From contig NC_086108.1 of NCBI RefSeq assembly GCF_963921235.1, positions 50,718,001-50,782,000 of the forward strand: a stretch of DNA of 64,000 bases, read 5' to 3'. Below, piece by piece: positions 9,903 through 56,707 of this stretch (position 1 is its first letter; each line of letters starts with the position of its first letter). The notes under the pieces were generated by a model, which was not told the DNA's origin, made no database searches, and saw only the letters and a program-made list of their open reading frames with translations. The stretch is from Mobula hypostoma (lineage: Eukaryota). The position numbers and the translations under genes were made by a program.

Positions 9903-10380
9903 ATATGTTGTAAAAAAAGATCACTCCCTATTCTGTACATAGTTTTCTTCTTTCGATTGTTCTTTCTTTCCTCTCCTTTCTATAAGTGTATACTTCAGAT
10001 AAATATTATGTGGAGATTTGTGACAAATATGATTATATGATATATATGTACAGTGTCTAAAATACATCTTATGGAAATGATTGTTTGACGATGAAATTCA
10101 ATAAAAAATAAATTACAAAAAAAAAAGAAATGGGAAGAATATGGTACAGCTGTAAATCTGCCTAGAGCAGGCCATCCTCAAAAACTGAGTGACCGTGCAA
10201 GAAGGGGACGAGTGATGGAGGCCACCAAGAGACCTATAACAAGTCTGGAGGAGTTACAAGCTTCAGTGGCTGAGATGGGAGAGACTGCGCATACAACAAC
10301 TGTTGCCTGGGTGCTTCACCAGTTGCAGCTCTATGGGGGAGTGGCAAAGAGAAAGCCACTGTTGAAAAAACTCACATGAT

Positions 10381-11135
10381 TAGGATTAGGAAAAGGGGAG
10401 GTGCAACGAGACCTGGGTGTCATTATACACCAGTCATTGAAAGTGGGCATGCAGGTACAGCAGGCGGTGAAAAAGGCGAACGGTATGCTGGCATTTATAG
10501 CGAGAGGATTCGAGTACAGGAGCAGGGAGGTACTACTGCAGTTGTACAAGGCCTTGGTGAGACCACACCTGGAGTATTGTGTGCAGTTTTGGTCCCCTAA
10601 TCTGAGGAAAGACATCTTTGCCATAGAGGGAGTACAAAGAAGGTTCACCAGATTGATTCCTGGGATGGCAGGTCTTTCATATGAAGAAAGACTGGATGAA
10701 CTGGGCTTGTACTCGTTGGAATTTAGAAGATTGAGGGGGGATCTGATTGAAACGTATAAGATCCTAAAGGGATTGGACAGGCTAGATGCGGGAAGATTGT
10801 TCCCGATGTTGGGGAGGTCCAGAACGAGGGATCACAGTTTGAGGATAGAGGGGAAGCCTTTTAGGACTGAGATTAGGAAAAACTTCTTCACACAGAGAGT
10901 GGTGAATCTGTGGAAATCTCTGCCACAGCAAACTGTTGAGGCCGGTTCATTGGCTGTGTTTAAGAGAAAGTTAGATATGGCCCTTGTGGCTACAGGGGTC
11001 AGGGGGTATGGAGGGAAGGCTGGGTTCTGAGTTGGATGATCAGCCATGATCATAATAAATGGCGGTGCAGGCTCGAAGGGCCGAATGGCCTACTCCTGCA
11101 CCTATTTTCTATGTTTCTATGTTTCTATGTTTCTA
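10381..11135 (+). mobile_element. Young 5'-truncated CR1 in Tc1
   Basis: ORF 10401-11030 nearly identical to the C-terminus of 48225-50834; (TTTCTATG)n tail. Confidence 0.95.
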
Positions 11136-16634: not shown

Positions 16635-17445
16635 AACAGAATACAAGGTGTTGTTCCTCCAACCTGAGTGTGGCCTCAACGCAACAGCGGAGGAGGCCAT
16701 GGGCTGACATCCCGGAATGGGAATGGAAAGTGGAATTAAAATGGATGGCCACTGGGAGATCCCACTTGCTCTGGCGGATGGAGCGTTAATGCTTGGCAAA
16801 GCAGTCTCCCAATCTACGTCAGGTCTCACTGATATACAGGAGGCCACACTGGGAACACTGAACACAGTAATGACCCCCACAATCTCACATGTGAAGTGTT
16901 GCCTCACCTGGAAGGACTGTTTAGGGCACCGAACGCAGTAATTGAACACCAACAGACTCACAGGTGAAGTGTCACCTCACCTGGAAGGACTGTTCAGGGA
17001 GGAACAATACTTAATATTCTGTTTGGGCAGCCTCCAACCTGATGGCATAAGCATTGATTTCTCAAACTTCCACCCTCCCCCTTCAGCATTTTCCATCCCC
17101 TTTTCCCTCCCTCACCTTATCTCCTTTCCCGCTCATCGCCTCCCTCTGGTGCTCCTCCCCCTTTTTTTCTTCCCTCCATGGCCTTCTGCCTCTTTCACCA
17201 ATCAAATTCCCAGCTCTTTACTTCAACCCTCTCCCTCCAGATTTCATCCACCACCTGGTGTTTCTCTCTCCCCTCCCCATACTTTTAAATCTATTCCTCA
17301 TCTTTTTTCCTCCAGTCCTACTGAAGGGCTTCGGCCTGAAGTATCGACCATACTTTCTTCCTTAGACGCTGCCAGGCCTGCTGAGTTCCTCCAGCATTTT
17401 GTGTGTGTTGCTCAGATTTCCAGCTGCAGATTTTCTTTTGTTTGC
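16635..17445. mobile_element. Fold-back Penelope element (minus 16635-16998, plus 16999-17445)
   Basis: GIY-YIG region on minus; EEQYLIFCLGSLQPDGISIDFSNF and 3' end on plus. Confidence 0.8.
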
Positions 17446-17892
17446 ATTTGGGTCTGTGTTATTTGATCTCAGCCATGGGAGATGCTGCACCATTTGTCCC
17501 CAGTTCTCCTTAGCGGAGTAAGGAAGGGAATGTGTGATGGAGCTCCTGATTCAGATTTTCTTCTGCTGATCTGGTATCTAGGGATTAGCTTTAAAACCAG
17601 ATTTGGCTCTTTCATAATCTTGGGAGAAAGAGGCAAGTGAAGGATGCTGAATGAGTGAAAGAGTGTGGTGGCTCTACAGCTGAAGGAGCAGTGAAAGTCC
17701 ATCTAGGGAGAAATAAAAATTTCAAAGTATTAATTACATTCTAGCTCTGGAATAATGGATGGTTTAACAGAAATCCATATGTTTATTCCTTGTGAACAAC
17801 AGCTGCTTAATACAGAGAGCACATTATTGCCTTTGTTAACAATATTAATAAAATCTATATCTGAATACCAGCCAGATATTTGTATTTATAAC

Positions 17893-18620
17893 AGCCTTCT
17901 ATATATTGGCGAGACCCGACGCAGACTGGGAGACCGCTTTGCTGAACATCTACGCTCTGTCCGCCAGAGAAAGCAGGATCTCCTAGTGGCCACACATTAT
18001 AATTCCACATCCCATTCCCATTCTGACATGTCTATCCATGGCCTCCTCTACTGTAAAGATGAAGCCACACTCAGGTTGGAGGAACAACACCTTATATTCT
18101 GTCTGGGTAGTCTTCAACCTGATGGCATGAACATTGACTTCTCTAACTTCCGCTAATGCCCCACCTCCCCCTCGTACCCCATCCGTTATTTATTTTTATA
18201 CACAAATTCTTTCTCTCTCTCTCCTTTTTCTTCCTCTGTCCCTCTGACTATACCCCTTGCCCATCCTCTGGGTTTCCCCCCCCCCTTGTCTTTCTCCCCG
18301 GACCTCCTGTCCCATGATCCTCTCATATCCCCTTTGCCAATCATCTGTCCAGCTCCACCTCATATGATCCTCTCATATCCCCTTTGCCAATCACTCCATC
18401 CCTCCCCCTCTTGTCTTCTCCTATCATTTTGGATCTCTCCCTCCCCCTCCCACTTTCAAATCCCTTACTCACTCTTCCTTCAGTTAGTCCTGACGAAGGG
18501 TCTTGGCCTGAAACGTCAACTGTACCTCTTCCTAGAGATGCTGCCTGGCCTGCTGCGTTCACCAGCAACTTTGATGTGTGTTGCTTGAATTTCCAGCATC
18601 TGCAGAATTCCTGTTGTTTA
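17893..18620 (+). mobile_element. Penelope-like 3' part
   Basis: LLYIGETRRRLGDRFAEHLRSVR (GIY-YIG); hammerhead at 18486-18521. Confidence 0.9.
18486..18521 (+). ncRNA. Minimal type I hammerhead ribozyme motif
   Basis: AGTC-CTGACGA-AGG..CCT-GAAAC-GTC-AACT; core intact, one stem I mismatch. Confidence 0.65.
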
Positions 18621-19565
18621 GATATTTGTAATTTGGATGCTAGCCTGAAACATTATTTCCACATCTTTATAGTATTTGACCCATCAAACTTCCCTTTAGG
18701 AGATTTGCTTTATAATCCTATTTTGTGGTTAACCATAAGAAGCTATTAGGTTAAAAAAAAGTAATCAGGGAAAAGTTCTGCAATGATTTGTGTTAAAATT
18801 AGATTAAGCACCACAAAACATGTTGAAATATAGACTAAACAGCAAAACACCTATTAGAGGTGGCAAAGAGAACAATTTTAAGAGCAAACATTTTTTTAAT
18901 TTCCTTCCAACAGATTTACAAACATTCCAACTAATGCTTTTTACTCTTAGATATTTGTCTTGTATTGTGACTTGATTGGCATATATAACCGGGAGGTCAT
19001 GCTAGACCCTCTACTTTATGTTGTCCCTCCAGTCTGTGGGTTTCCACTGGGACATGTGCCTCTCCCCTTCTGAGGCTCAGAACAACAAATTCCATTCTTG
19101 ACAGAGTTCACTTTAAGTCAACGAGCAAACCACTTGGGAGAGCTAATTAAAGAAACTCAACCTACAGCCTGCTCAGGTTTTATGGGGTTGGAAACTCCTG
19201 GGAAGTTCAAACAGAAGTGATGCAACTCTTCCCAAACACAATTAAACTTTTCCTCCTTATCTGATCCACAGTGACATTTATTTGCAGAAACATTTCAGCC
19301 TGTGTTTGCCTTGTTTCAAGACAATGTGAAAAGTAAATTTGCTAACGGGGAGTGCTGTCTATGTCTCCGATACAAACTTGAGATTAATTTTCTTCTAGGC
19401 ATTTACAGGAAAATAAAGAAATAAAATAGAATTTATGAAAAACCATGCATAAACAAAGATTGACAACCAATATGAAAAGGGAGTCAAATTATGCAAGGAA
19501 AATAATAAAAGAATACAGAGAATGTGAGTTGTAGAGTGCTTGAAAGTGAGTTTGTACTTGAATTA

Positions 19566-20850
19566 ACACACACAAAAAAATGCTGGTGAATGCAGCAGGC
19601 CAGGCAGCATCTATAGGAAGAGGTACAGTTGACGTATCAGGCCGAGACTCTTCGTCAGGACTAACTGAAAGAAAAGATAGTAAGAGATTTGAAAGTGAGA
19701 GGGGGAGGGGGAGATCCGAAATGATAGGAGAAGACAGGAGGGGGAGGGATGAAGCTCAGAGCTGGAAAGTTGATTGGCAAAAGGGATATGAGAGGATCAT
19801 GGGACGAGAGGCCTAGGGAGAAAGAAAGGGGAGGGGGGGAAGCCCAGAGGAGGGGCAAGGAGTATAGTGAGAGAGACAGAGGGAAAAAAAAATAATAATA
19901 AATAAATAATGGATGGGGTATGAAGGGGAGGTGGGGCATTAACGGAAGTTAGAGAAGTCAATGTTCATGCCATCAGGTTGGAGACTACCCAGACGGAATG
20001 TAAGGTGTTGTTCATCCAACCTGAGTGTGGCTTCATCTTTACAGTAGAGGAGGCCGTGGATAGACATATCAGAATGGGAATGGGACGTGGAATTAAAATG
20101 TGTGGGCACTGGGAGATCCTGCTTTCTCTGGCGGACAAAGCGTAGGCGTTCAGTGAAATGGTCTCCCAGCCTGCGTCGGGTCTTGCCAATATATAGAAGG
20201 CCGCATCGGGAGCACCGGACATAGTATATCACCCCAGCCGACTCACAGGTGAAGGGTCGCCTCACCTGGAAGGACTGTCTGGGGCCCTGAATGGTGGTGA
20301 GGGAGGAAATGTAAGGGCATGTGTAGCACTTGTTCCGCTTACAAGGACAAGTGCCGGGAGGGCGATCGGTGGGAAGGGATGGGGGGGACAAATGGACAAG
20401 GGAGTCACGTAGGGAGCAAACCCTGTGGAAAGCCGGGGGGGGGGGGAGGGAAAGATATGCTTAGTGGTGGGATCCCGTTGGAGGTGGCGGAAGTTACGGA
20501 GAATTATATGTTGGACCTGGAGGCTGGTGGGGTGGTAGGTGAGGACAAGGGAAACCCTATTCCTAGTGGGGTGATGGGAGGATGGAGTGAGAGCAGATGT
20601 ACGTGAAATGGGGGAGATGTGTTTGAGAGCAGAGTTGATGGTGGAGGAAGGGAAGCCCCTTTCTTTGAAAAAGGAGGACATTTCCTTCGTCCTGGAATGA
20701 AAAGCCTCATCCTGAGAGCAGATGCGGTGGAGACAGAGGAATTGCGAGAAGGGGATGGAATTTTTGAAAGAGACAGGGTGAGAAGAGGAATAGTCCAGAT
20801 AGCTGTGAGAGTCCGTAGGCTTATAGTAGACATCAGTGGATAAGCTGGAG
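19566..20850 (-). mobile_element. Penelope-like element (RT thumb, linker, GIY-YIG, 3' repeat)
   Basis: TDVYYKPTDSHSYLDYSSSHP; VIYYVRCSRCGLLYIGKTRRRL. Confidence 0.95.
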
Positions 20851-21384
20851 ACCTTGTGCAGATTTTCCTGCATGCACAGTAGTTTTGCTCCAGATAAGTT
20901 GGATTCTGGCTTTGAGAGCTCTAGCTTTTGAGAAAGATATACAGTATGTTCAGTGAGCAGGAATGGTTAGACAGATTAAGTAGACAGCACAGAGCCTGCA
21001 TACACTGTTGTGGAATATGCAGGAATTCACCTCCAATTTGGCTCAAGTCTTCACCCACAGTGTGGTGATGATTCTGTCCACATGGACAGACTGGTCAGTT
21101 CGGTAGAAATACTGCATCAGCAGCCTGTCACTGTCCTCACATAGAGCAAGAGGAACCCACAGGTAGTGCCCGGCAGAATGGGGGAAATGTGGGCAATGCC
21201 AATGCCCTTCTCAGGAGGTCCACACAACCTACTACCCATGGATCCCATGGTTGTCTGCTTTGTTATAATGTGGGAGCAAGGTACACTGCTTGTTGAACTG
21301 GTCTTAGAAATCTGGCAGGTTGGGGCACTAGGGATGACTGTGCCTTCCGCTGTAACCTCCCCCCTCCCAGCTCATTCGCGAGTG

Positions 21385-23400: not shown

Positions 23401-24141
23401 TGTCACAGCCATCCCCAAATGTCTATTCACAGAACTGGTAAAGGAAACAGGCATTATGCTAAATCCAACAAAGGAAGTGCTCATTGGGCCAGGGAAACAG
23501 AAGCTCAGTGTGAAAGGAATGTTTCCTACTTCCATCGGTAAAGCTGAGAAACTGTCGTTCAGAATCCCTTTCACTACTGCTGGGCTGACATGTGTTAAAG
23601 TGGATTTTTTTGGGTAGACTATCTGTTTACACTTAAAATGACTTTGGCCACCAGACTTCTATTTTAACTGTTTGACAAAGGACTGTGGATTGAGTCCACC
23701 GCAATGGGCTTCCTAAAAGGTGTAAATACCAGATGCTTCTGGCTCCTGATGCTGTAGTTTCGAAGACAGTCTTATCTATACATTACAAATATTAATTGTC
23801 TTCTATGTTAGCACGTAAAATGCCAAATAAATGTATTGTGGATTGAACAAAAAGCTGTGGATACCAACCCAGACATGTTGACGTCGGAGGGGAAGGATGA
23901 AATCTGAAGATGTGATATTTGTATGTAGCTTCAAGAGGAAGCATTGTCTATAACTTTTAAGTAGCGATTGCCTTTGTGTTTAGCATATAAATATCGAGCC
24001 CACATTGAGCTAACAGTTCTCTCTGCGAAAAGCGTCTCCGTCCGTTAAGATGCCTGCTGTACCTTGTTGTGTCAAATAAAGAAGCTGCTTTGTATCTACC
24101 AGTGACTCTGTCTCTCCGGTAATTTCATCCACGCTACAACA
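23401..24141 (+). mobile_element. Solo LTR related to the ERV LTR at 37261-37768
   Basis: TG...CAACA; TGCCTGCTGTA..TCAAATAAAGAAGCTGCTT..CTACCAGT matches the reverse complement of the ERV LTR; left boundary uncertain. Confidence 0.7.
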
Positions 24142-24292
24142 ACATGCCATCAAGAAGGAGAACTTAATTATAAGGTTGGATTCACTAAACAATGTTCAGT
24201 GGTGGGAGAAGTACCCGGAGTTGTTCACAAGCCTGGGGACACCGGTAGAAGAGTACCTCATCCTACTAAGGACAGGAGTGACGGCCTAATTC

Positions 24293-25064
24293 AGATTATT
24301 ATCTGAATGGTGGCCGATTAGGAAAAGGGGAGGTGCAACGAGACCTGGGTGTCATTATACACCAGTCATTGAAAGTGGGCATGCAGGTACAGCAGGCGGT
24401 GAAAAAGGCAAATGGTATGCTGGCATTTATAGCGAGAGGATTCGAGTACAGGAGCAGGGAGGTACTACTGCAGTTGTTCAAGGCCTTGGTGAGACCACAC
24501 CTGGAGTATTGTGTGCAGTTTTGGTCCCCTAATCTGAGGAAAGACATCTTTGCCATAGAGAGAGTACAAAGAAGGTTCACCAGATTGATTCCTGGGATGG
24601 CAGGACTTTCATATGAAGAAAGACTGGATGAACTGGGCTTGTACTCGTTGGAATTTAGAAGATTGAGGGGGGATCTGATTGAAACATATAAGATCCTAAA
24701 GGGATTGGACAGGCTGGATGCAGGAAGATTGTTCCCGATGTTGGGGAAGTCCAGAACGAGGGGTTACAGTTTGAGGATAGAGGGGAAGCCTTTTAGGACC
24801 GAGATTAGGAAAAACTTCTTCACACAGAGAGTGGTGAATCTGTGGAATTCTCTGCCACAGGAAACTGTTGAGGCCAGTTCATTGGCTATGTTTAAGAGGG
24901 AGTTAGATATGGCCCTTGTGGCTATGGGGGTCAGGGGGTATGGAGGGAAGGCTGGGGCGGGGTTCTGATTTGGATGATCAGCCATGATCATAATAAATGG
25001 CGGTGCAGGCTCGAAGGGCCGAATGGCCTACTCCTGCACCTATTTTCTATGTTTCTATGTTTCT
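24293..25064 (+). mobile_element. Young 5'-truncated CR1
   Basis: ORF 24333-24968, same subfamily as 48225-50834. Confidence 0.95.
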
Positions 25065-33650: not shown

Positions 33651-36382
33651 ACTCATTGGTGTGAAGGTCTCATAGGATGGGAGATGACTACTTATGTTTT
33701 CTACAGATGCTTGATTAGTTTTCATTTCTGAATCATTTTTCCATTTTTATATTCAGATGTAGCTGTCATTAGAGATTTTAATTTACAATAGGTTTGCATA
33801 AGAGAAGGGAAATAATGCAGGATGCTGTGAACAAATATTTTTAAATGGAACTGAAAGAATGGGCATGGGATGAAAAGGACCATTGAACAAAAGTAAACTC
33901 CAGAACAGCATTTTGATATTTCTGTTGTTGCATGAATTAATTCACTGGAGAAAAGTACTGGTAGATATGAAGCAGCTTCTTTATTCGACAAAACGCAGTA
34001 CAGCAGGCATTATATTGAGGCCCATATTGAGCCAATTTAACTAAACCGGCTTCGGTCATTTCTTCCTGCACACCTGCAATTTCAATTGCCTCTTGTTCCT
34101 CTGTTTTCCTCAAACTGATGTCTGCCCCCTAATTTCCTTCCTGCTCTTCACTCTCCCCTTTCCAGTGAGCTTTCACTTTAATTGCTGCCACCTCTGCTGT
34201 CAGACTCACTGCTTTAACTGTTGTCGTATTCGGTGCCCGTGCTGAATACCTAACCATATTGAGGTTACAAATCCTCGTCGTGCCCATGTCATCAGATAAT
34301 CACGCCCATCCTGAGGGCAGACTGGCTGTCTGTATATGTATTTATTCATCTACCTTCACTGTAGTGCACCAGTATTGACTTCCATCAGGGCCACCAGTTC
34401 CACTACCTGAGCTGAGCGATCCCTGGCAGTGCTCCTGAAGCTAATTCGTCACCTGTTTGCTTCACCATGGCCTACCCAGTGCGTGGCTTCCCTTCTAAGT
34501 ACCTCTAAGATCCACCTATATAATTTTCCTCTGCTCCCCCTTCCAGATGTGTTTCCTTCACACCAATATCTTCTTCCTGCTCTATTTCCATTTGGCATTC
34601 GTGAGCCTCCCCCTCTGTTCGGATGGTGCTCACGGGATTCATTCATCTGGCCCCCATCTTCCTTCCTCCAGAGTGGCGTTCCTCCTTTAACCAAGGCCTG
34701 GATCAGGGCCACTAGTGCTGAGAATCCTGGTATGAAATTACAGCAGAAATTCAACAGACCCATTACCCTCCTCACTCCCCTTATGTTTACTGGGCAGGGC
34801 CAGAAGCTGATTGCCGAGCGTCTGTCATCTGACATGTCCTTTCTCCCCTGGGAAATGGTGCAGCCTAGGTACTATACAGACTGCTTTCCTACCTGAGCAT
34901 TGTGTGGACTGATTTGAAACCTTTGGCTTGCAGTACTGTATCTCTAAAACACTGGCTTTCACCGTTAAATGATCTGCTTTGTTTTCTGAGGCAATGAGTA
35001 GCTCATCTACTTATTGTAAGATGGTCGACCAGTGGGGCATTAGATTGAGCTTTTCCAAAGTCTGCACCATGACCTTATGATAGATGGCTGGGCTATTGTG
35101 GAATCCCTGGGGTGTCTGGTCCACGTATACTGCCGCCCACCTAGGGTGAAGGCAAATCGGTCTTAGGGCTCAGGTGTTAAGGGGAGCTCCCAAAATCCAT
35201 TATCGATATCCAGAACTGAAAAAACTTTATGTTCTAGAGGCAGGCCATTCAGGATTGTTGCAGGGCTCGCCACGATGTGATGCAATTTTGGTATGGGCTT
35301 ATTACTGGCAGTATAGTCTACAGTTAACTGATACAATCCACCGGGCTTCTTTACTGGCCAAATACGTGAGCTAGTAGTTGATGCAGTCTTTCTGAGTATC
35401 CCCTGGTGTTTTAGTTCCTTCACTGTACCCTGAACAGCTGATAGTGTGGAAGTGTGTCAGTTTTTATAGGGTACTGCTTATGGATTTATGCAGGCCCCTC
35501 CCCTCCATTTTAACTGGGCCCTTCTTTACTCAACCACAATCTTACTTGTGTTTAGCCTACACTGCTGGAACTGCTGCCAAAGTAACCCATAGACGCCGTC
35601 CTGGCTCCAGTCCCTGATGATCAGGCAGCTGTGACTATGCTAGCCAGGTTATATACTCTGCTGCTTGTAGGTATTCACTGCTCCTGGCTTGTCCATATTA
35701 TCTCCCCCTTTCCTGAATCCATAATGGCTCCTGCTTCCCTTGTGACATTTATTCCAAGGACAGGACCCCCATTATTTGGACAGACCCAGAAATACACAGG
35801 AAGCTGAACCCTACCAATTTCGAGTATTTGTGACTCCTTTCACTATTTCTCCTCCTACACCCCGAATATAAGTGGCCCATCCATTTGTTGGCAAGAGTAG
35901 AACAGTTATCGATACCGAAGCCCCTGTGTCCACTAACATATTGCATTGCCGGCCCTCTAACAATGCTGTTGTGTACATTCATGGGTTAACAGCACTGGCA
36001 GTGGGGGTTGCCAGCACATCTTCTTCTGACATAGAAGCCACCTTCACCAGCTCTACGATCTGATCGACAGTCAGATTAGTCCGACTGGATGCTGATAGGG
36101 TGAGAGATTGCGTGTCTGCCATGACTTCAACCTGTTTTGATTTCCTCATTTTTGGATCTTGCCTCCAACCATGTCCCAATATGCCACAGCTGTAGCACAT
36201 AAACTTCCTTACCCTCCCACGTCTATTCCAGCAGTTCCTCGCTTCGTGCCCTGGCTGCTAGCACACAAAACAAACCCTCAGTGATGTCGCTACAGCGGCA
36301 TCCCCAACAGCTACTTTATGATTTCTCCTGCACTTTCTTTGGTCTATCAGCCACTCTTGAGTGCCTGAACTCAATATGCCTG

Positions 36383-36902
36383 TTCATTGAGAGCATACTC
36401 ACCAACTGCATCTCAGTGTGGTATGACAATTGTCCTGTATCGGACCGCAAAGCACTCCAGCGTGTGGTGAAAACTGCCTAGCGAATTATCGGCACCCAAT
36501 TGCCCAACATTGAGAACATCTACCACAAACGCTGCCTGGGCAGGGCGAAAAGCATTATCAGGGATGCATCTCACCCTAACCATGGACGTTTTACTCTCCT
36601 CCCATCTGGTAGGTGCTACAGGAGTCTCCGCTCCCGCACCAGCAGGCACAGGAAGAGCTTCTTCCCTGAGGCTGTGACCCTGCTGAACCTCACATCACAG
36701 CTCTAAGCAGTATTGTACCCATATTGTACTGTCTCAGTACTTTTATATTTGTGTGCTGTAGCACTTACTTTTTATGCGCAGTTATTTTGTAAATAACACT
36801 GTTCTTTGCATTTCTGGTCAGATGCTAACAGCATTTCATTGGCTTTGTACCTGTGCTCGGCACAGTGACAATAAAGTTGAATCTGATCTAATTTAATCTA
36901 AA
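36383..36902 (+). mobile_element. Rex1 3' fragment in ERV gag
   Basis: IESILTNCISVWY..DRKALQRVVKTA; FTLLPSGR. Confidence 0.9.
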
Positions 36903-37237
36903 TTCATTTGCATCACACTCACAAGCTGCATATGCTAAAGTGCAGCTCCCCGAACGCGTGTACACGCCCCTCAACAGCGTCCCGAACCTGCATTAACAAC
37001 CCTTCGCAACTGGTGGCTCCGTCTCACCAAAATAACACACGAAGTTCTGTCTCTTACATAAACGCACATGCACGTGCACACACTGGGTTTATATCTACCC
37101 GTTCAGCTTTCCGCATTCATGATACTTCATATTCCAGTGTACCATCGATCTGAACAGATCCAAGAGTGCTAATTTAAAAAATTCTCACCCACTGAGACTG
37201 TGAAGATCACTGACCACACGATGGGTCACACAAAGAT

Positions 37238-37252
37238 ATCTCACTCCTGACA
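37238..37252 (-). promoter_or_regulatory. Decayed tRNA-Leu PBS of the ERV
   Basis: Minus strand TGTCAGGAGTGAGAT, 8 nt after the LTR end CAACA. Confidence 0.65.
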
Positions 37253-37260
37253 TGAAACGT

Positions 37261-37768
37261 TGTTGCGTAAATGTAGTCATCAGAGATAAGTGCTGGTAGT
37301 TATGAAGTAGCTTCTTTATTTTGACAAAACAAAATACAGCAGGCATCATATTGATGATCTTTCAGATGGAAGGTTTGGCGGGCCCATCGTGGGGCTTGTT
37401 ATTTGATGTGCTAAACATCAAAGGACAATTCCATATTTACAATGTATCTACAATACTTTCTTTGAAACTACACACAGAATTCACAGCTCCTGATCCACAC
37501 CCACACCACAGACAGACATTCAAACGATTTTTGGTCAGCATCGTCTGGTCTGTTATTCAAGGCTTTTAGGAACCTATTGCTCAGAGCAGTATTTTATCTA
37601 CAATTTATATTCAGATTTGAAGATTAGTGGCTTTGGGTTTTGCACATTTACATTTAGCAAGGTCATTTGCTGAACTTAAATGTGCTAAATCCAAAAGTCA
37701 CTCTAGCAATTTTCATTTTGATTTTTCCAGTTTATACTTTCTGCTCAGGCTGTACATTACCCACTACA
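37261..37768 (-). repeat. ERV 5' LTR
   Basis: TGTAG...CAACA on minus with AATAAA; first about 90 bp repeated at 33926-34020. Confidence 0.8.
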
Positions 37769-48130: not shown

Positions 48131-48206
48131 CTGTCGTAGTATTTGTAATATTCTAATATTTTTTGTATTTCATTTAAGTACATAATAACGTATTTCATTT
48201 AAGTAC

Positions 48207-50932
48207 GAAGGAAGGGGAGGTGGGGTGGCGTTGCTGGTTAAAAAAGAGATTAACGCAATAGAAAGGAAGGACATAAGCCGGGAAGATGTGGAATCGATAT
48301 GGGTAGAGCTGCGTAACACTAAGGGGCAGAAGACGCTGGTGGGAGTTGTGTACAGGCCACCTAACAGTAGTAGTGAGGTCAGAGATGGTATTAAACAGGA
48401 AATTAGAAATGTGTGCAATAAAGGAACAGCAGTTATAATGGGTGACTTCAATCTACATGTAGACTGGGTGAACCAAATTGGTAAAGGTGCTGAGGAAGAG
48501 GATTTCTTGGAATGTATGCGGGATGGTTTTTTGAACCAACATGTCGAGGAACCGACTAGAGAGCAGGCTATTCTGGACTGGGTTTTGAGCAATGAGGAAG
48601 GGTTAATTAGCGATCTTGTCGTGAGAGGCCCCTTGGGTAAGAGTGACCATAATATGGTGGAATTCTTCATTAACATGGAGAGTGACGTAGTTAATTCAGA
48701 AACAAAGGTTCTGAACTTAAAGAGGGGTAACTTTGAAGGTATGAGACATGAATTAGCTAAGATAGACTGGCAAATGACACTTCAAGGATTGACGGTGGAT
48801 ATGCAATGGCAGGCATTTAAAGGTTGCATGGATGAACTACAACAATTGTTCATCCCAGTTTGGCAAAAGAATAAATCAAGGAAGGTAGTGCACCCGTGGC
48901 TGACAAGAGAAATTAGGGATAGTATCAATTCCAAAGAAGTAGCATACAAATTAGCCAGAGAAAGTGGCTCACCTGAGGACTGGGAGAAATTCAGAGTTCA
49001 GCAGAGGAGGACAAAGGGCTTAATTAGGAAGGGGAAAAAAGATTATGAGAGAAAACTGGCAGAGAACATAAAAACGGACTGTAAAAGCTTTTATAGATAT
49101 GTAAAAAGGAAAAGACTGATAAAGACAAATGTAGGTCCCCTGCAAACAGAAACAGGTGAATTGATTATGGGGAGCAAGGACATAGCAGACCAATTGAATA
49201 ATTACTTTGGTTCTGTCTTCACTAAGGAGGACATAAATAATCTTCCAGAAATAGTAAGGGACAGAGGGTCCAGTGAGATGGAGGAACTGAGCGAAATACA
49301 TGTTAGTAGGGAAGTGGTGTTAGGTAAATTGAAGGGATTGAAGGCAGATAAATCCCCAGGGCCAGATGGTCTGCATCCCAGAGTGCTTAAGGAAGTGGCC
49401 CAAGAAATAGTGGATGCATTAGTGATAATTTTTCAAAACTCGTTAGATTCTGGACTAGTTCCTGAGGATTGGAGGGTGGCTAATGTAACCCCACTTTTTA
49501 AAAAAGGAGGGAGAGAGAAACCGGGGAATTATAGGCCGGTTAGCCTAACGTCGGTGGTGGGGAAACTGCTGGAGTCAGTTATCAAGGATGTGATAACAGC
49601 ACATTTGGAAAGCGGTGAAATGATCGGACAAAGTCAGCATGGATTTGTGAAAGGAAAATCATGTCTGACGAATCTCATAGAATTTTTTGAGGATGTAACT
49701 AGTAGAGTGGATAGGGGAGAACCAGTGGATGTGGTATATTTGGATTTTCAAAAGGCTTTTGACAAGGTCCCACATAGGAGATTAGTGTGCAAACTTAAAG
49801 CACACGGTATTGGGGGTAAGGTATTGGTGTGGGTGGAGAATTGGTTAGCAGACAGGAAGCAAAGAGTGGGAATAAACGGGACCTTTTCAGAATGGCAGGC
49901 GGTGACTAGTGGGGTACCGCAAGGCTCAGTGCTGGGACCCCAGTTGTTTACAATATATATTAATGACTTGGATGAGGGAATTAAATGCAGCATCTCCAAG
50001 TTTGCGGATGACACGAAGCTGGGTGGCAGTGTTAGCAGTGAGGAGGATGCTAAGAGGATGCAGGGTGACTTGGATAGGTTGGGTGAGTGGGCAAACTCAT
50101 GGCAGATGCAATTTAATGTGGATAAATGTGAAGTTATCCACTTTGGTGGCAAAAATAGGAAAACAGATTATTATCTGAATGGTGGCCGATTAGGAAAAGG
50201 GGAGGTGCAACGAGACCTGGGTGTCATTATACACCAGTCATTGAAAGTGGGCATGCAGGTACAGCAGGCGGTGAAAAAGGCGAACGGTATGCTGGCATTT
50301 ATAGCGAGAGGATTCGAGTACAGGAGCAGGGAGGTACTACTGCAGTTGTACAAGGCCTTGGTGAGACCACACCTGGAGTATTGTGTGCAGTTTTGGTCCC
50401 CTAATCTGAGGAAAGACATCTTTGCCATAGAGGGAGTACAAAGAAGGTTCACCAGATTGATTCCTGGGATGGCAGGTCTTTCATATGAAGAAAGACTGGA
50501 TGAACTGGGCTTGTACTCGTTGGAATTTAGAAGATTGAGGGGGGATCTGATTGAAACGTATAAGATCCTAAAGGGATTGGACAGGCTAGATGCAGGAAGA
50601 TTGTTCCCGATGTTGGGGAGGTCTAGAACGAGGGGTCACAGTTTGAGGATAGAGGGGAAGCCTTTTAGGACCGAGGTTAGGAAAAACTTCTTCACACAGA
50701 GAGTGGTGAATCTGTGGAATTCTCTGCCACAGCAAACTGTTGAGGCCAGTTCATTAGCTATGTTTAAAAGGAAGTTAGATATGGCCCTTGTGGCTACAGG
50801 GGTCAGGGGGTATGGAGGGAAGGCTGGGTTCTGAGTTGGATGATCAGCCATGATCATAATAAATGGCGGTGCAGGCTCGAAGGGCCGAATGGCCTACTCC
50901 TGCACCTATTTTCTATGTTTCTATGTTTCTAT
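48207..50932 (+). mobile_element. Young CR1 LINE, 5'-truncated within the endonuclease
   Basis: Uninterrupted ORF; 3' UTR stem GAAGGGCCGAATGGCCT and (TTTCTATG)n tail. Confidence 0.97.
48225..50834 (+). CDS. CR1 ORF2 (partial APE endonuclease and RT), 869 codons, natural start missing
   Basis: VYRPP, GDFN, SDH; LDFQKAFDKVPH, GVPQGSVLGP, KFADD. Confidence 0.9.
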   Translation: MALLVKKEINAIERKDISREDVESIWVELRNTKGQKTLVGVVYRPPNSSSEVRDGIKQEIRNVCNKGTAVIMGDFNLHVDWVNQIGKGAEEEDFLECMRDGFLNQHVEEPTREQAILDWVLSNEEGLISDLVVRGPLGKSDHNMVEFFINMESDVVNSETKVLNLKRGNFEGMRHELAKIDWQMTLQGLTVDMQWQAFKGCMDELQQLFIPVWQKNKSRKVVHPWLTREIRDSINSKEVAYKLARESGSPEDWEKFRVQQRRTKGLIRKGKKDYERKLAENIKTDCKSFYRYVKRKRLIKTNVGPLQTETGELIMGSKDIADQLNNYFGSVFTKEDINNLPEIVRDRGSSEMEELSEIHVSREVVLGKLKGLKADKSPGPDGLHPRVLKEVAQEIVDALVIIFQNSLDSGLVPEDWRVANVTPLFKKGGREKPGNYRPVSLTSVVGKLLESVIKDVITAHLESGEMIGQSQHGFVKGKSCLTNLIEFFEDVTSRVDRGEPVDVVYLDFQKAFDKVPHRRLVCKLKAHGIGGKVLVWVENWLADRKQRVGINGTFSEWQAVTSGVPQGSVLGPQLFTIYINDLDEGIKCSISKFADDTKLGGSVSSEEDAKRMQGDLDRLGEWANSWQMQFNVDKCEVIHFGGKNRKTDYYLNGGRLGKGEVQRDLGVIIHQSLKVGMQVQQAVKKANGMLAFIARGFEYRSREVLLQLYKALVRPHLEYCVQFWSPNLRKDIFAIEGVQRRFTRLIPGMAGLSYEERLDELGLYSLEFRRLRGDLIETYKILKGLDRLDAGRLFPMLGRSRTRGHSLRIEGKPFRTEVRKNFFTQRVVNLWNSLPQQTVEASSLAMFKRKLDMALVATGVRGYGGKAGF

Positions 50933-55449: not shown

Positions 55450-55662
55450 TATCTCCTGTACCTAATAAAGTGGCTATTGAGTGTATGTTCGTGGTCTTCT
55501 GCTGCTGTAGTCCATAGCCCATCAGCTTCAAGGTCCTCCGTGTTCTGCTCTTCTGCACACCACAGTCGTAATGCGTGATTACTTGACTTACTGTCAGTTT
55601 GATCCAGGTTAGCCATTCTCTTCTGACCTCTCTCATTAACAAGACTGTTATGCCATTGAACT

Positions 55663-56707
55663 CAAAAAACAGGAATTCTGCAGATACTGGAAATTCAAGC
55701 AACACACATAAAAGTTGCTGGTGAACGCAGTAGGCCAGGCAGCATCTCTAGGAAGAGGTGCAGTCGACGGTTCAGGCCGAGACCCTTCGTCAGGACTAAC
55801 TGAAGGAAGAGTGAGTAAGGGATTTGAAAGTGGGAGGGGGAGGGGGAGATCCAAAATGATAGGAGAAGACAGGAGGGGGAGGGATGAAGCCAAGAGCTGG
55901 ACAGGTGATAGGCAAAAGGGATACGAGAGGATCATGGGACAGGAGGTCTGGGAAGAAAGATAAGCGGGGGGGGGACCCAGAGGATGGGCAAGAGGTATAT
56001 TCAGAGAGACAGAGGGAGAAAAAGGAGATTGAAAGAAAGAATGTGTGTATAAAAATAAGTAACAGATGGGGTACGAGGGGGAGGTGGGGCATTAGCGGAA
56101 GTTAGAGAAGTCGATGTTCATGCCATCAGGTTGGAGGCTATCCAGACAGAGACATGTCAGAATGGGAATGGGATGTGGAATTAAAATGTGTGACCACTGG
56201 GAGATCCTGCTTTCTCTGGCAGACAGAGCGTAGATGTTCAGAGAAGCGGTCTCCCAGTCTGCGTCGGGTCTCGCCAATATATAAAAGGCCACATCGGGAG
56301 CACCGGATGCAGTATATCACCCCAGCCGACTCACAGATGAAGTGTTCGCGGTATATCACCCCAGTCGACTCACAGGTGAAGTGTTTTTCTCCCTCTGTCC
56401 CTCTGAATATACCCCTTGCCCATCCTCTGGGTCCCCCCCCCCACTTGTCTTTCTTCCTGGACCTCCTGTCCCATGATCCTCTCGTATCCCTTTTGCCTAT
56501 CACCTGTCCAGCTCTCGGCTCTATCCCTCCCCCTCCTGTTTTCTCCTATCATTTTGGATCTCCCCCTCCCCCTCCAACTTTCAAATCCCTTACTCACTCT
56601 TCCTTCAGTTAGTCCTGACGAAGGGTCTCGGCCTGAAACGTCGACTGCACCTCTTCCTAGAGATGCTGCCTGGCCTGCTGCGTTCACCAGCAACTTTTAT
56701 GTGTGAC
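55663..56707. mobile_element. Fold-back Penelope element with inverted termini
   Basis: About 320-bp inverted repeat; 11-bp TSD GCCATTGAACT (55652-55662, 56708-56718). Confidence 0.92.
56611..56646 (+). ncRNA. Minimal type I hammerhead ribozyme (best copy)
   Basis: Stem I AGTC/GACT; CTGACGA; stem II AGG/CCT; GAAAC; GTC cleavage triplet. Confidence 0.75.

Follow-up and report, generated by a model that had tools for sequence, protein, structure and literature searches.

A decayed endogenous retrovirus in Mobula hypostoma assigned to an unnamed shark and turtle lineage that probably branches just outside class I

The endogenous retroviruses (ERVs) described from the elephant shark comprise one lineage resembling snakehead retrovirus (SnRV) and two epsilon-like lineages (PMC4422223), and lokiretroviruses are defined by an own reverse transcriptase (RT) clade, a group I RNase H, a CGIN1-like integrase and a paramyxovirus F-like envelope (Wang and Han, 2021, PMC7947760). 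Chong et al. (PMC4299795) give one or two zinc fingers and a GPF/Y motif as traits of ERV1 that are absent from ERV3 and ERV4, and also cover unplaced intermediates. Here we describe an ERV in a stretch of 64,000 nucleotides of Mobula hypostoma (NCBI RefSeq assembly GCF_963921235.1, contig NC_086108.1, positions 50,718,001 to 50,782,000 of the forward strand), hereafter the window, in which the element lies on the minus strand and spans 33923 to approximately 37768. We are almost certain that it is a dead ERV, and very probably it belongs to an unnamed lineage of sharks and turtles. What is new is a decayed member, the lineage itself having been represented before in data from turtles and teleosts: four turtle consensus ERVs that belong to it are in the supplements of Xu et al. 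2018 (PMC6001957), and three cyprinid ERVi (PMC10435555) match its teleost sister group. We found no paper in the open-access literature (Repbase excluded) that names or describes the lineage or reports it from cartilaginous fishes, and PMC8227577 and PMC10699275 hold no description of it in the parts consulted; related literature includes PMC5512871, PMC12440569 and bioRxiv 2024.03.25.586437.

An initial annotation, made from the sequence alone, had proposed a minus-strand retrovirus-like element with a series of motifs, and all 15 that were searched for were found, at 34165-36197, the FAFT...NSP string crossing a frame change. The long terminal repeat (LTR) and leucine-type primer-binding site (PBS) that it listed were likewise recovered. 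The ends of the two LTRs (37259-37354 and 33924-34018) match over 96 bp at 81% identity (E 2.5e-21), and AATAAA lies at 37320 within the 5′ LTR (37258-37768). The 3′ end of this LTR is firm and its 5′ start uncertain, between approximately 37708 and 37768. Only the last 96 bp of the 3′ LTR are left (33923-34018), as indicated by the LTR match and by contig ends. The downstream boundary is firm, as contigs of run X1 (109) and run X5 (104) exit into unlike sequence at 33923. An LTR start at 37768, the upstream end of the span first proposed, gained no such backing: multi-copy contig cover drops to flank level above approximately 37731, and no exact target-site duplication marks the start. A candidate PBS of the tRNA-Leu type (37238-37255) begins two nucleotides past the LTR end and agrees at 14 of 18 positions with an 18-mer that we take to be the Leu(CAG/CAA)-type primer sequence; only two places in the window, both strands included, match as well as this.

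Of Gag, the nucleocapsid end remains (35979-36384), including the zinc knuckles. A single decayed CCHC knuckle had been reported at first. The decayed knuckle is there (36156-36197; Pfam zf-CCHC E 0.041), but it is the second of two, and the first, at 36231-36272, is better kept, although it contains a stop (E 0.013). Only 112 nt separate this first knuckle from an inserted long interspersed nuclear element (LINE), whereas in the nearest relative with Gag approximately 385 residues precede it, which means that the matrix and most of the capsid are missing here. A frameshifted aspartic protease (35700-35978) continues in the frame of the knuckles, and the fingers, palm and thumb of the RT (34680-35476) carry stops, frame changes and a damaged active-site motif. 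At 34643-34679 residues 368 and 519 of the related protein P0154 abut, indicating an internal deletion of about 150 tether codons; other copies have extra sequence at its two edges, and in one contig of run X9 the junction is crossed in the same way as in this element. Alignment to relatives identified the tether tail and the second, retroviral-type RNase H, both decayed, at 34090-34642. Little of the RNase H is lost, its N-terminal part being present at 34421-34540, and some 20 residues of the tether tail remain. The spacer between RNase H and integrase (34019-34089) extends to where the integrase would begin and is ended by the 3′ deletion, which took the integrase itself, env if there was one, and all but the last 96 bp of the 3′ LTR. 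Neither integrase nor env probes had a match in the window. The loss of tether, integrase and env had been proposed before: it holds for the latter two, the tether is mostly gone, and most of gag has disappeared as well.

To place the element, homologues were searched over 1.84 billion representatives (1101 hits, the best 150 listed), and a follow-up search with the horn shark protein gave 67 hits. Among the listed matches, the RT is most similar to P0154 (59% identity), whose cluster includes Mustelus asterias XP_078069418.1, to P0155 (57%) and to Heterodontus francisci P0004 (48%). Beyond this shark clade identity amounts to 40-44% for a teleost group, 38% for SnRV and 32-37% for class I, and in the remoter rows to 30-34% for Loki, 31-32% for foamy viruses and 21-26% for Gypsy. 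None of the 192 candidates of a word-indexed search with the RT piece was a relative, nor was any of five pattern hits when the piece was compared to viral contigs. Intact relatives carry the Pol domains RVT_1, RT_RNaseH_2, RNase_H, Integrase_H2C2 and rve; tether and second RNase H are both whole in P0251/P0254, and P0254 has a GPY/F-like motif. Two knuckles are present in the horn shark Gag (P0004), for which the nearest Atlas clusters combine Gag_p24/Gag_p30 with zf-CCHC (best 0.94, to be taken as a lead only, with structural template-modelling scores <0.5). In the teleost sister group, locus L003 encodes a TLV_coat env (E 1e-20), and in L001 and L004 gag and pol share one frame split by one stop, an arrangement that foamy loci do not have. 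L001 (1112-6457) and L002 contain an element, from a 30-member cluster, in which gag and pol are open; the remaining 115-373 nt of the contigs hold no env, and the element may lack env altogether and have been active recently. L003 (162-5825) and L004 are metagenome contigs with open gag-pol and the TLV_coat env, in which a scan for RT motifs gave no standard YxDD string.

Five trees of the RT were examined. The first left out 79 of the 151 homologues as too short, and the later ones used hand-picked rows: 71, 67 and 49 for the RT only (under LG+G4, LG+G4 and a mixture model, respectively) and 46 for RT plus tether (mixture model). P0012 was labelled SnRV by its match to the RT printed in PMC7947760 and to a 10,688-nt viral record, P0138 feline foamy virus and P0033 walleye epidermal hyperplasia virus 1 (WEHV1). 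Loki rows were identified by comparing their motifs with the published alignment, and we assigned the delta, beta, lenti, gamma, ERV-L and Gypsy labels ourselves, from motifs and tree position. The Mobula element formed a clade with P0154, P0155/P0254 and P0004 (paired supports 99/90, 99/99 and 97/99 in the RT trees, 100/100 with the tether). In all five trees its RT fell inside Retroviridae and outside the Loki clade, and in the four later ones the Retroviridae clade, apart from Loki and Gypsy, had a support of 100/99. Approximately unbiased (AU) tests, run under LG+G4, rejected grouping the element with Gypsy (p 2.8e-5). This RT phylogeny, which had been suggested as the check, upholds the initial assignment to retroviruses rather than Gypsy and to a deep-branching lineage outside the named genera, and that the lineage is neither Loki nor Gypsy we regard as practically settled. 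When the tether was included, the shark and teleost groups were joined at 97/92 and were sister to class I at 91/89, with the foamy viruses apart. The RT remained outside the class I clade (100/99) and, in the same tree, outside a gar/Astyanax/Alosa clade basal to class I. The rows of that clade (P0002, P0160, P0161, P0163 and P0164) lie between the shark lineage and epsilon/gamma (100/99). Another deep-branching intact Pol, P0162/P0285 (8-11 kb contig), fell near the foamy viruses, SnRV and the shark lineage without support, and may represent a further unplaced lineage. In the RNase H tree the element grouped with the same relatives (98/97); its place was with the class I side (87/87), and Loki and foamy viruses fell elsewhere.

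Together, the RT plus tether tree, the RNase H, the two-knuckle Gag, the gag-pro frame and the TLV_coat env of the sister group favour a lineage on the stem of class I, and a position just outside gamma/epsilon is probable. The ERV1 traits, one or two Gag zinc fingers and an equivalent of GPF/Y, are present, the knuckles in the Mobula element and the motif in P0254, and the ERV3/ERV4 combination of no Gag zinc finger and no GPY/F does not describe this lineage. Several results weigh against our view of the element and its position. The RT-only trees joined the lineage to the foamy viruses (91/87, 93/87 and 92/86, none starred), and the link to class I (91/89) was not starred either and came from a tree without class II rows. 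The integrase tree of the relatives gave no resolution at this depth; their integrase grouped neither with the Loki rows nor with foamy viruses, CGIN1 not being among the rows. A topology with foamy viruses basal and the lineage with class I/II had an AU p of 0.19 and so was not rejected. The best matches among solved structures were foamy RT (63 bits), then murine leukaemia virus (47 bits). No env was seen for the shark clade, and no exact target-site duplication of 4, 5 or 6 bp was found at any of the 19 TG starts tested.

The joins in the RT-only trees and the leading structural match would be expected if the lineage were a short-branched sister of the foamy viruses, whose lack of zinc knuckles and separate pol would then be derived. 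We consider this unlikely, since foamy branches are long and adding the tether brought about separation, the RNase H and the relatives' integrase group elsewhere, and the AU test weakly rejected the shark clade with foamy viruses alone (p 0.04). Fish foamy-like ERVs are described without Cys-His boxes and mostly with Lys primers (PMC5210030), and Xu et al. report no foamy-related clade Tu in reptiles, though their data hold four turtle members (PMC6001957). The foamy combination of a Lys, Asn or Thr primer, pol in a separate frame, a foamy RNase H and a knuckle-free Gag is not seen in this lineage. A snakehead-retrovirus-like or class III (clade Huo) element, kin to the elephant shark CmiERV lineage I, was read early on from the RT motifs, which by eye are closer to SnRV than to Loki, and was dropped when trees and AU tests proved contrary. 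CmiERV lineage I does cluster with SnRV (Han 2015, PMC4422223), most cartilaginous-fish ERV RTs have been binned in clade III (bioRxiv 2023.10.17.562709), and the RNase H of SnRV and that of the element belong to one broad group (82/88). Nevertheless, such kinship is doubtful: a branch with supports of 96-98/94-98 in the RT trees separates the element from the SnRV, ERV-L and ERV4-like rows, the RT is only 38% identical to that of SnRV, and CmiERV scaffold 2, as read by eye, has one knuckle and a different PBS. The AU p values point the same way (0.019 for the clade with SnRV alone, 0.0013 when five SnRV-like rows are joined to it). Since the groupings with SnRV, foamy viruses and class I were chosen with the trees already in view, their AU p values serve as lenient guides.

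A lokiretrovirus-like origin had been suggested initially, and a lokiretrovirus or Odin-like element in cartilaginous fishes would share the dual RNase H layout and the NGFW motif. The LDxxNGFW string, first noted as foamy-like, does resemble that of foamy RT; as it is common to foamy viruses, Loki, the snakehead-like viruses and the shark lineage, it does not discriminate. Loki rows formed their own clade (99-100) outside Retroviridae in all five trees, joining the element alone to Loki had an AU p of 1e-86 (5.7e-9 for the whole clade), and the RNase H is not of the Loki type. The RT also does not carry the Loki signature at the primer grip and active site, and Bik-1, the Gag of Loki, has been described as ending in a tail rich in glycine instead of in knuckles. 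The suggestion is thus abandoned, a Loki or Odin origin being highly improbable; for Odin, of which no sequence was among the rows, the exclusion follows from its being the sister of Loki (PMC9040795). With it falls the surprising host range, while the accompanying remark that lokiretroviruses were reported mainly outside cartilaginous fishes agrees with the published survey, in which none of six chondrichthyan genomes contained them (PMC7947760, Fig. S1). For a Gypsy LTR retrotransposon one could cite the absence of env from the copy at hand, and LTR, PBS and knuckles occur in Gypsy too. This origin has next to nothing left in its favour given the AU result, an RT identity of 21-26%, 22 bits for Ty3 RT versus 63 for foamy RT, and the second RNase H after the tether.

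The remaining parts of the element document its decay. The 336 nt between the PBS and the LINE (36902-37237) represent a leader, possibly with a scrap of gag, and had no detectable match to the Gag of four relatives. The inserted LINE is a 517-nt 3′ end of a high-copy non-LTR retrotransposon, presumably Rex/Babar-like, at 36385-36901, on the plus strand and so opposite to the ERV, with a 6-bp flanking repeat. In pol, assessed over 11 hand-set pieces, 13 stops and 10 frame changes were counted, including one frame change at the tether deletion, and damage extends to the catalytic motifs of both RT and RNase H. The element cannot replicate and there is no sign of host use; Rfam gave no matches. 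The divergence of the LTRs (Kimura two-parameter distance 0.22 over 96 sites) would translate to about 50 million years at 2.2e-9 or 220 million years at 0.5e-9, ages that we do not rely on because the stretch is so short and a target-site duplication is lacking. In a comparison with four of the 24 listed runs, from four coded organisms (X1 possibly being the source), each run had contigs that pass from the upstream flank into the LTR; hence the insertion is shared and predates their split.

The family has spread to many sites. Within the window, a second, diverged LTR of it lies on the plus strand at 23701-24144 (69% identity over 249 bp), apparently solo. This LTR contains an internal duplication of about 75 bp and is directly upstream of a CR1 fragment. 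A near-intact CR1 LINE ORF2 occurs at 48189-50834 on the plus strand (881 aa without a stop), and the closely similar 3′ fragments at 10380-11030 and 24282-24968 suggest a young CR1 family. The closest named vertebrates for this ORF2, judged from one stretch in 118 of 120 listed hits, are Chiloscyllium punctatum (77%) and Mobula birostris (66%), the best named tetrapod reaching 57%. Taken with the shark relatives of the ERV, this points indirectly to a cartilaginous fish as the likely host, in agreement with the initial annotation. P0324, a CR1 ORF2 labelled Carnobacterium maltaromaticum, is probably host DNA inside a bacterial assembly. A Penelope-like repeat, which we take to be of the GIY-YIG type, is present in many copies (1594-2055, 16942-18749, 19939-20966 and 55648-56612). 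The window derives almost entirely from transposons, and none of 47 long frames could be recognised as a host exon.

We propose that the element is a defective ERV of an unnamed deep lineage of sharks, rays and turtles, with a teleost sister group, which probably branches just outside class I. Its founder would have worked in the manner of an orthoretrovirus, copying an LTR-bounded genome by reverse transcription, the PBS pointing to priming by tRNA-Leu, and would have encoded a Gag with the two-knuckle nucleocapsid still seen here. Pol, in the Gag frame, would have been made by read-through of a stop, with the RT-tether-RNase H-integrase layout that intact relatives display and this copy retains in part. 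A gamma-type envelope, found in the teleost sister group, was probably present in the founder of the family as well, and integrase would have driven the spread to many sites. This copy would later have lost most of gag, the tether, the integrase, env and the 3′ LTR, gained the LINE insertion and decayed, and the solo LTR may have arisen by recombination. By itself the element is of little weight, as a single degraded copy from a family that is typical of its hosts, a group known for many deep-branching ERV RTs. It is a pointer to a lineage with short RT branches in cartilaginous fishes, turtles and teleosts, at the point where foamy, class I and snakehead-like viruses part, and including this lineage in phylogenies has a bearing on how Retroviridae are rooted and on the succession in which knuckles, RNase H and env types were acquired. 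A bolder version, which we think improbable, makes the lineage the closest short-branched relative of the foamy viruses that nonetheless has an orthoretrovirus-type Gag with zinc knuckles, a read-through Pol, a class I-type RNase H and a gamma-type env. If it were true, the lineage would bridge Spumaretrovirinae and Orthoretrovirinae, and foamy viruses would be derived within orthoretrovirus-like ancestors, not basal. That the RT is about equally distant from members in sharks and in turtles hints at a jump between host classes, a general pattern already reported by Xu et al. (PMC6001957).

Compared with known systems, the nearest named database relatives are the shark proteins XP_078069418.1 (Mustelus asterias) and XP_067870587.1 (Heterodontus francisci), which share the RT-tether-RNase H arrangement and the two-knuckle Gag; they differ in being less decayed and in forming separate families at 48-59% identity, and are annotated only as uncharacterized. 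The turtle ERVs ch_my_ERV12, ch_pi_ERV20, ma_te_ERV13 and pe_si_ERV12 (PMC6001957, S2 Data) are by eye of the same RT lineage and share diagnostic RT stretches with P0154/P0155, in different hosts. By hand count, ch_my_ERV12, like the other turtle rows outside the trees, is identical to the Mobula element at 64 of 108 residues (~59%) in the N-terminal half of the RT. The teleost sister group, represented by Pimephales promelas elements and by Grar.ERVi and Rrut.ERVi of Wang and Han 2023 (PMC10435555), whose published RTs match P0156 by eye, has the same Pol layout and a sister position (97/92 with RT plus tether, 84/93 in the 67-row RT tree), but is 42-44% identical in RT and was possibly active in recent times, with one knuckle in L001 and L004 and the TLV_coat env in L003. 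SnRV and CmiERV lineage I resemble the element in their fish hosts, RT motifs, CCHC Gag and one-frame gag-pol; they do not form one clade with it, and have one knuckle and another PBS. Foamy viruses and fish foamy-like ERVs, the best structural match and the neighbour in RT-only trees, differ in primers, pol frame and RNase H and have no Cys-His boxes, and lokiretroviruses differ in RT clade, RT signature and RNase H type. Class I/ERV1 (epsilon WEHV1 and gamma) shares the Gag knuckles, the GPY/F-like motif, the RNase H type, the one-frame gag-pol and, through the sister group, the TLV_coat env, while the RT of the Mobula element, 32-37% identical, lies outside the class I clade.

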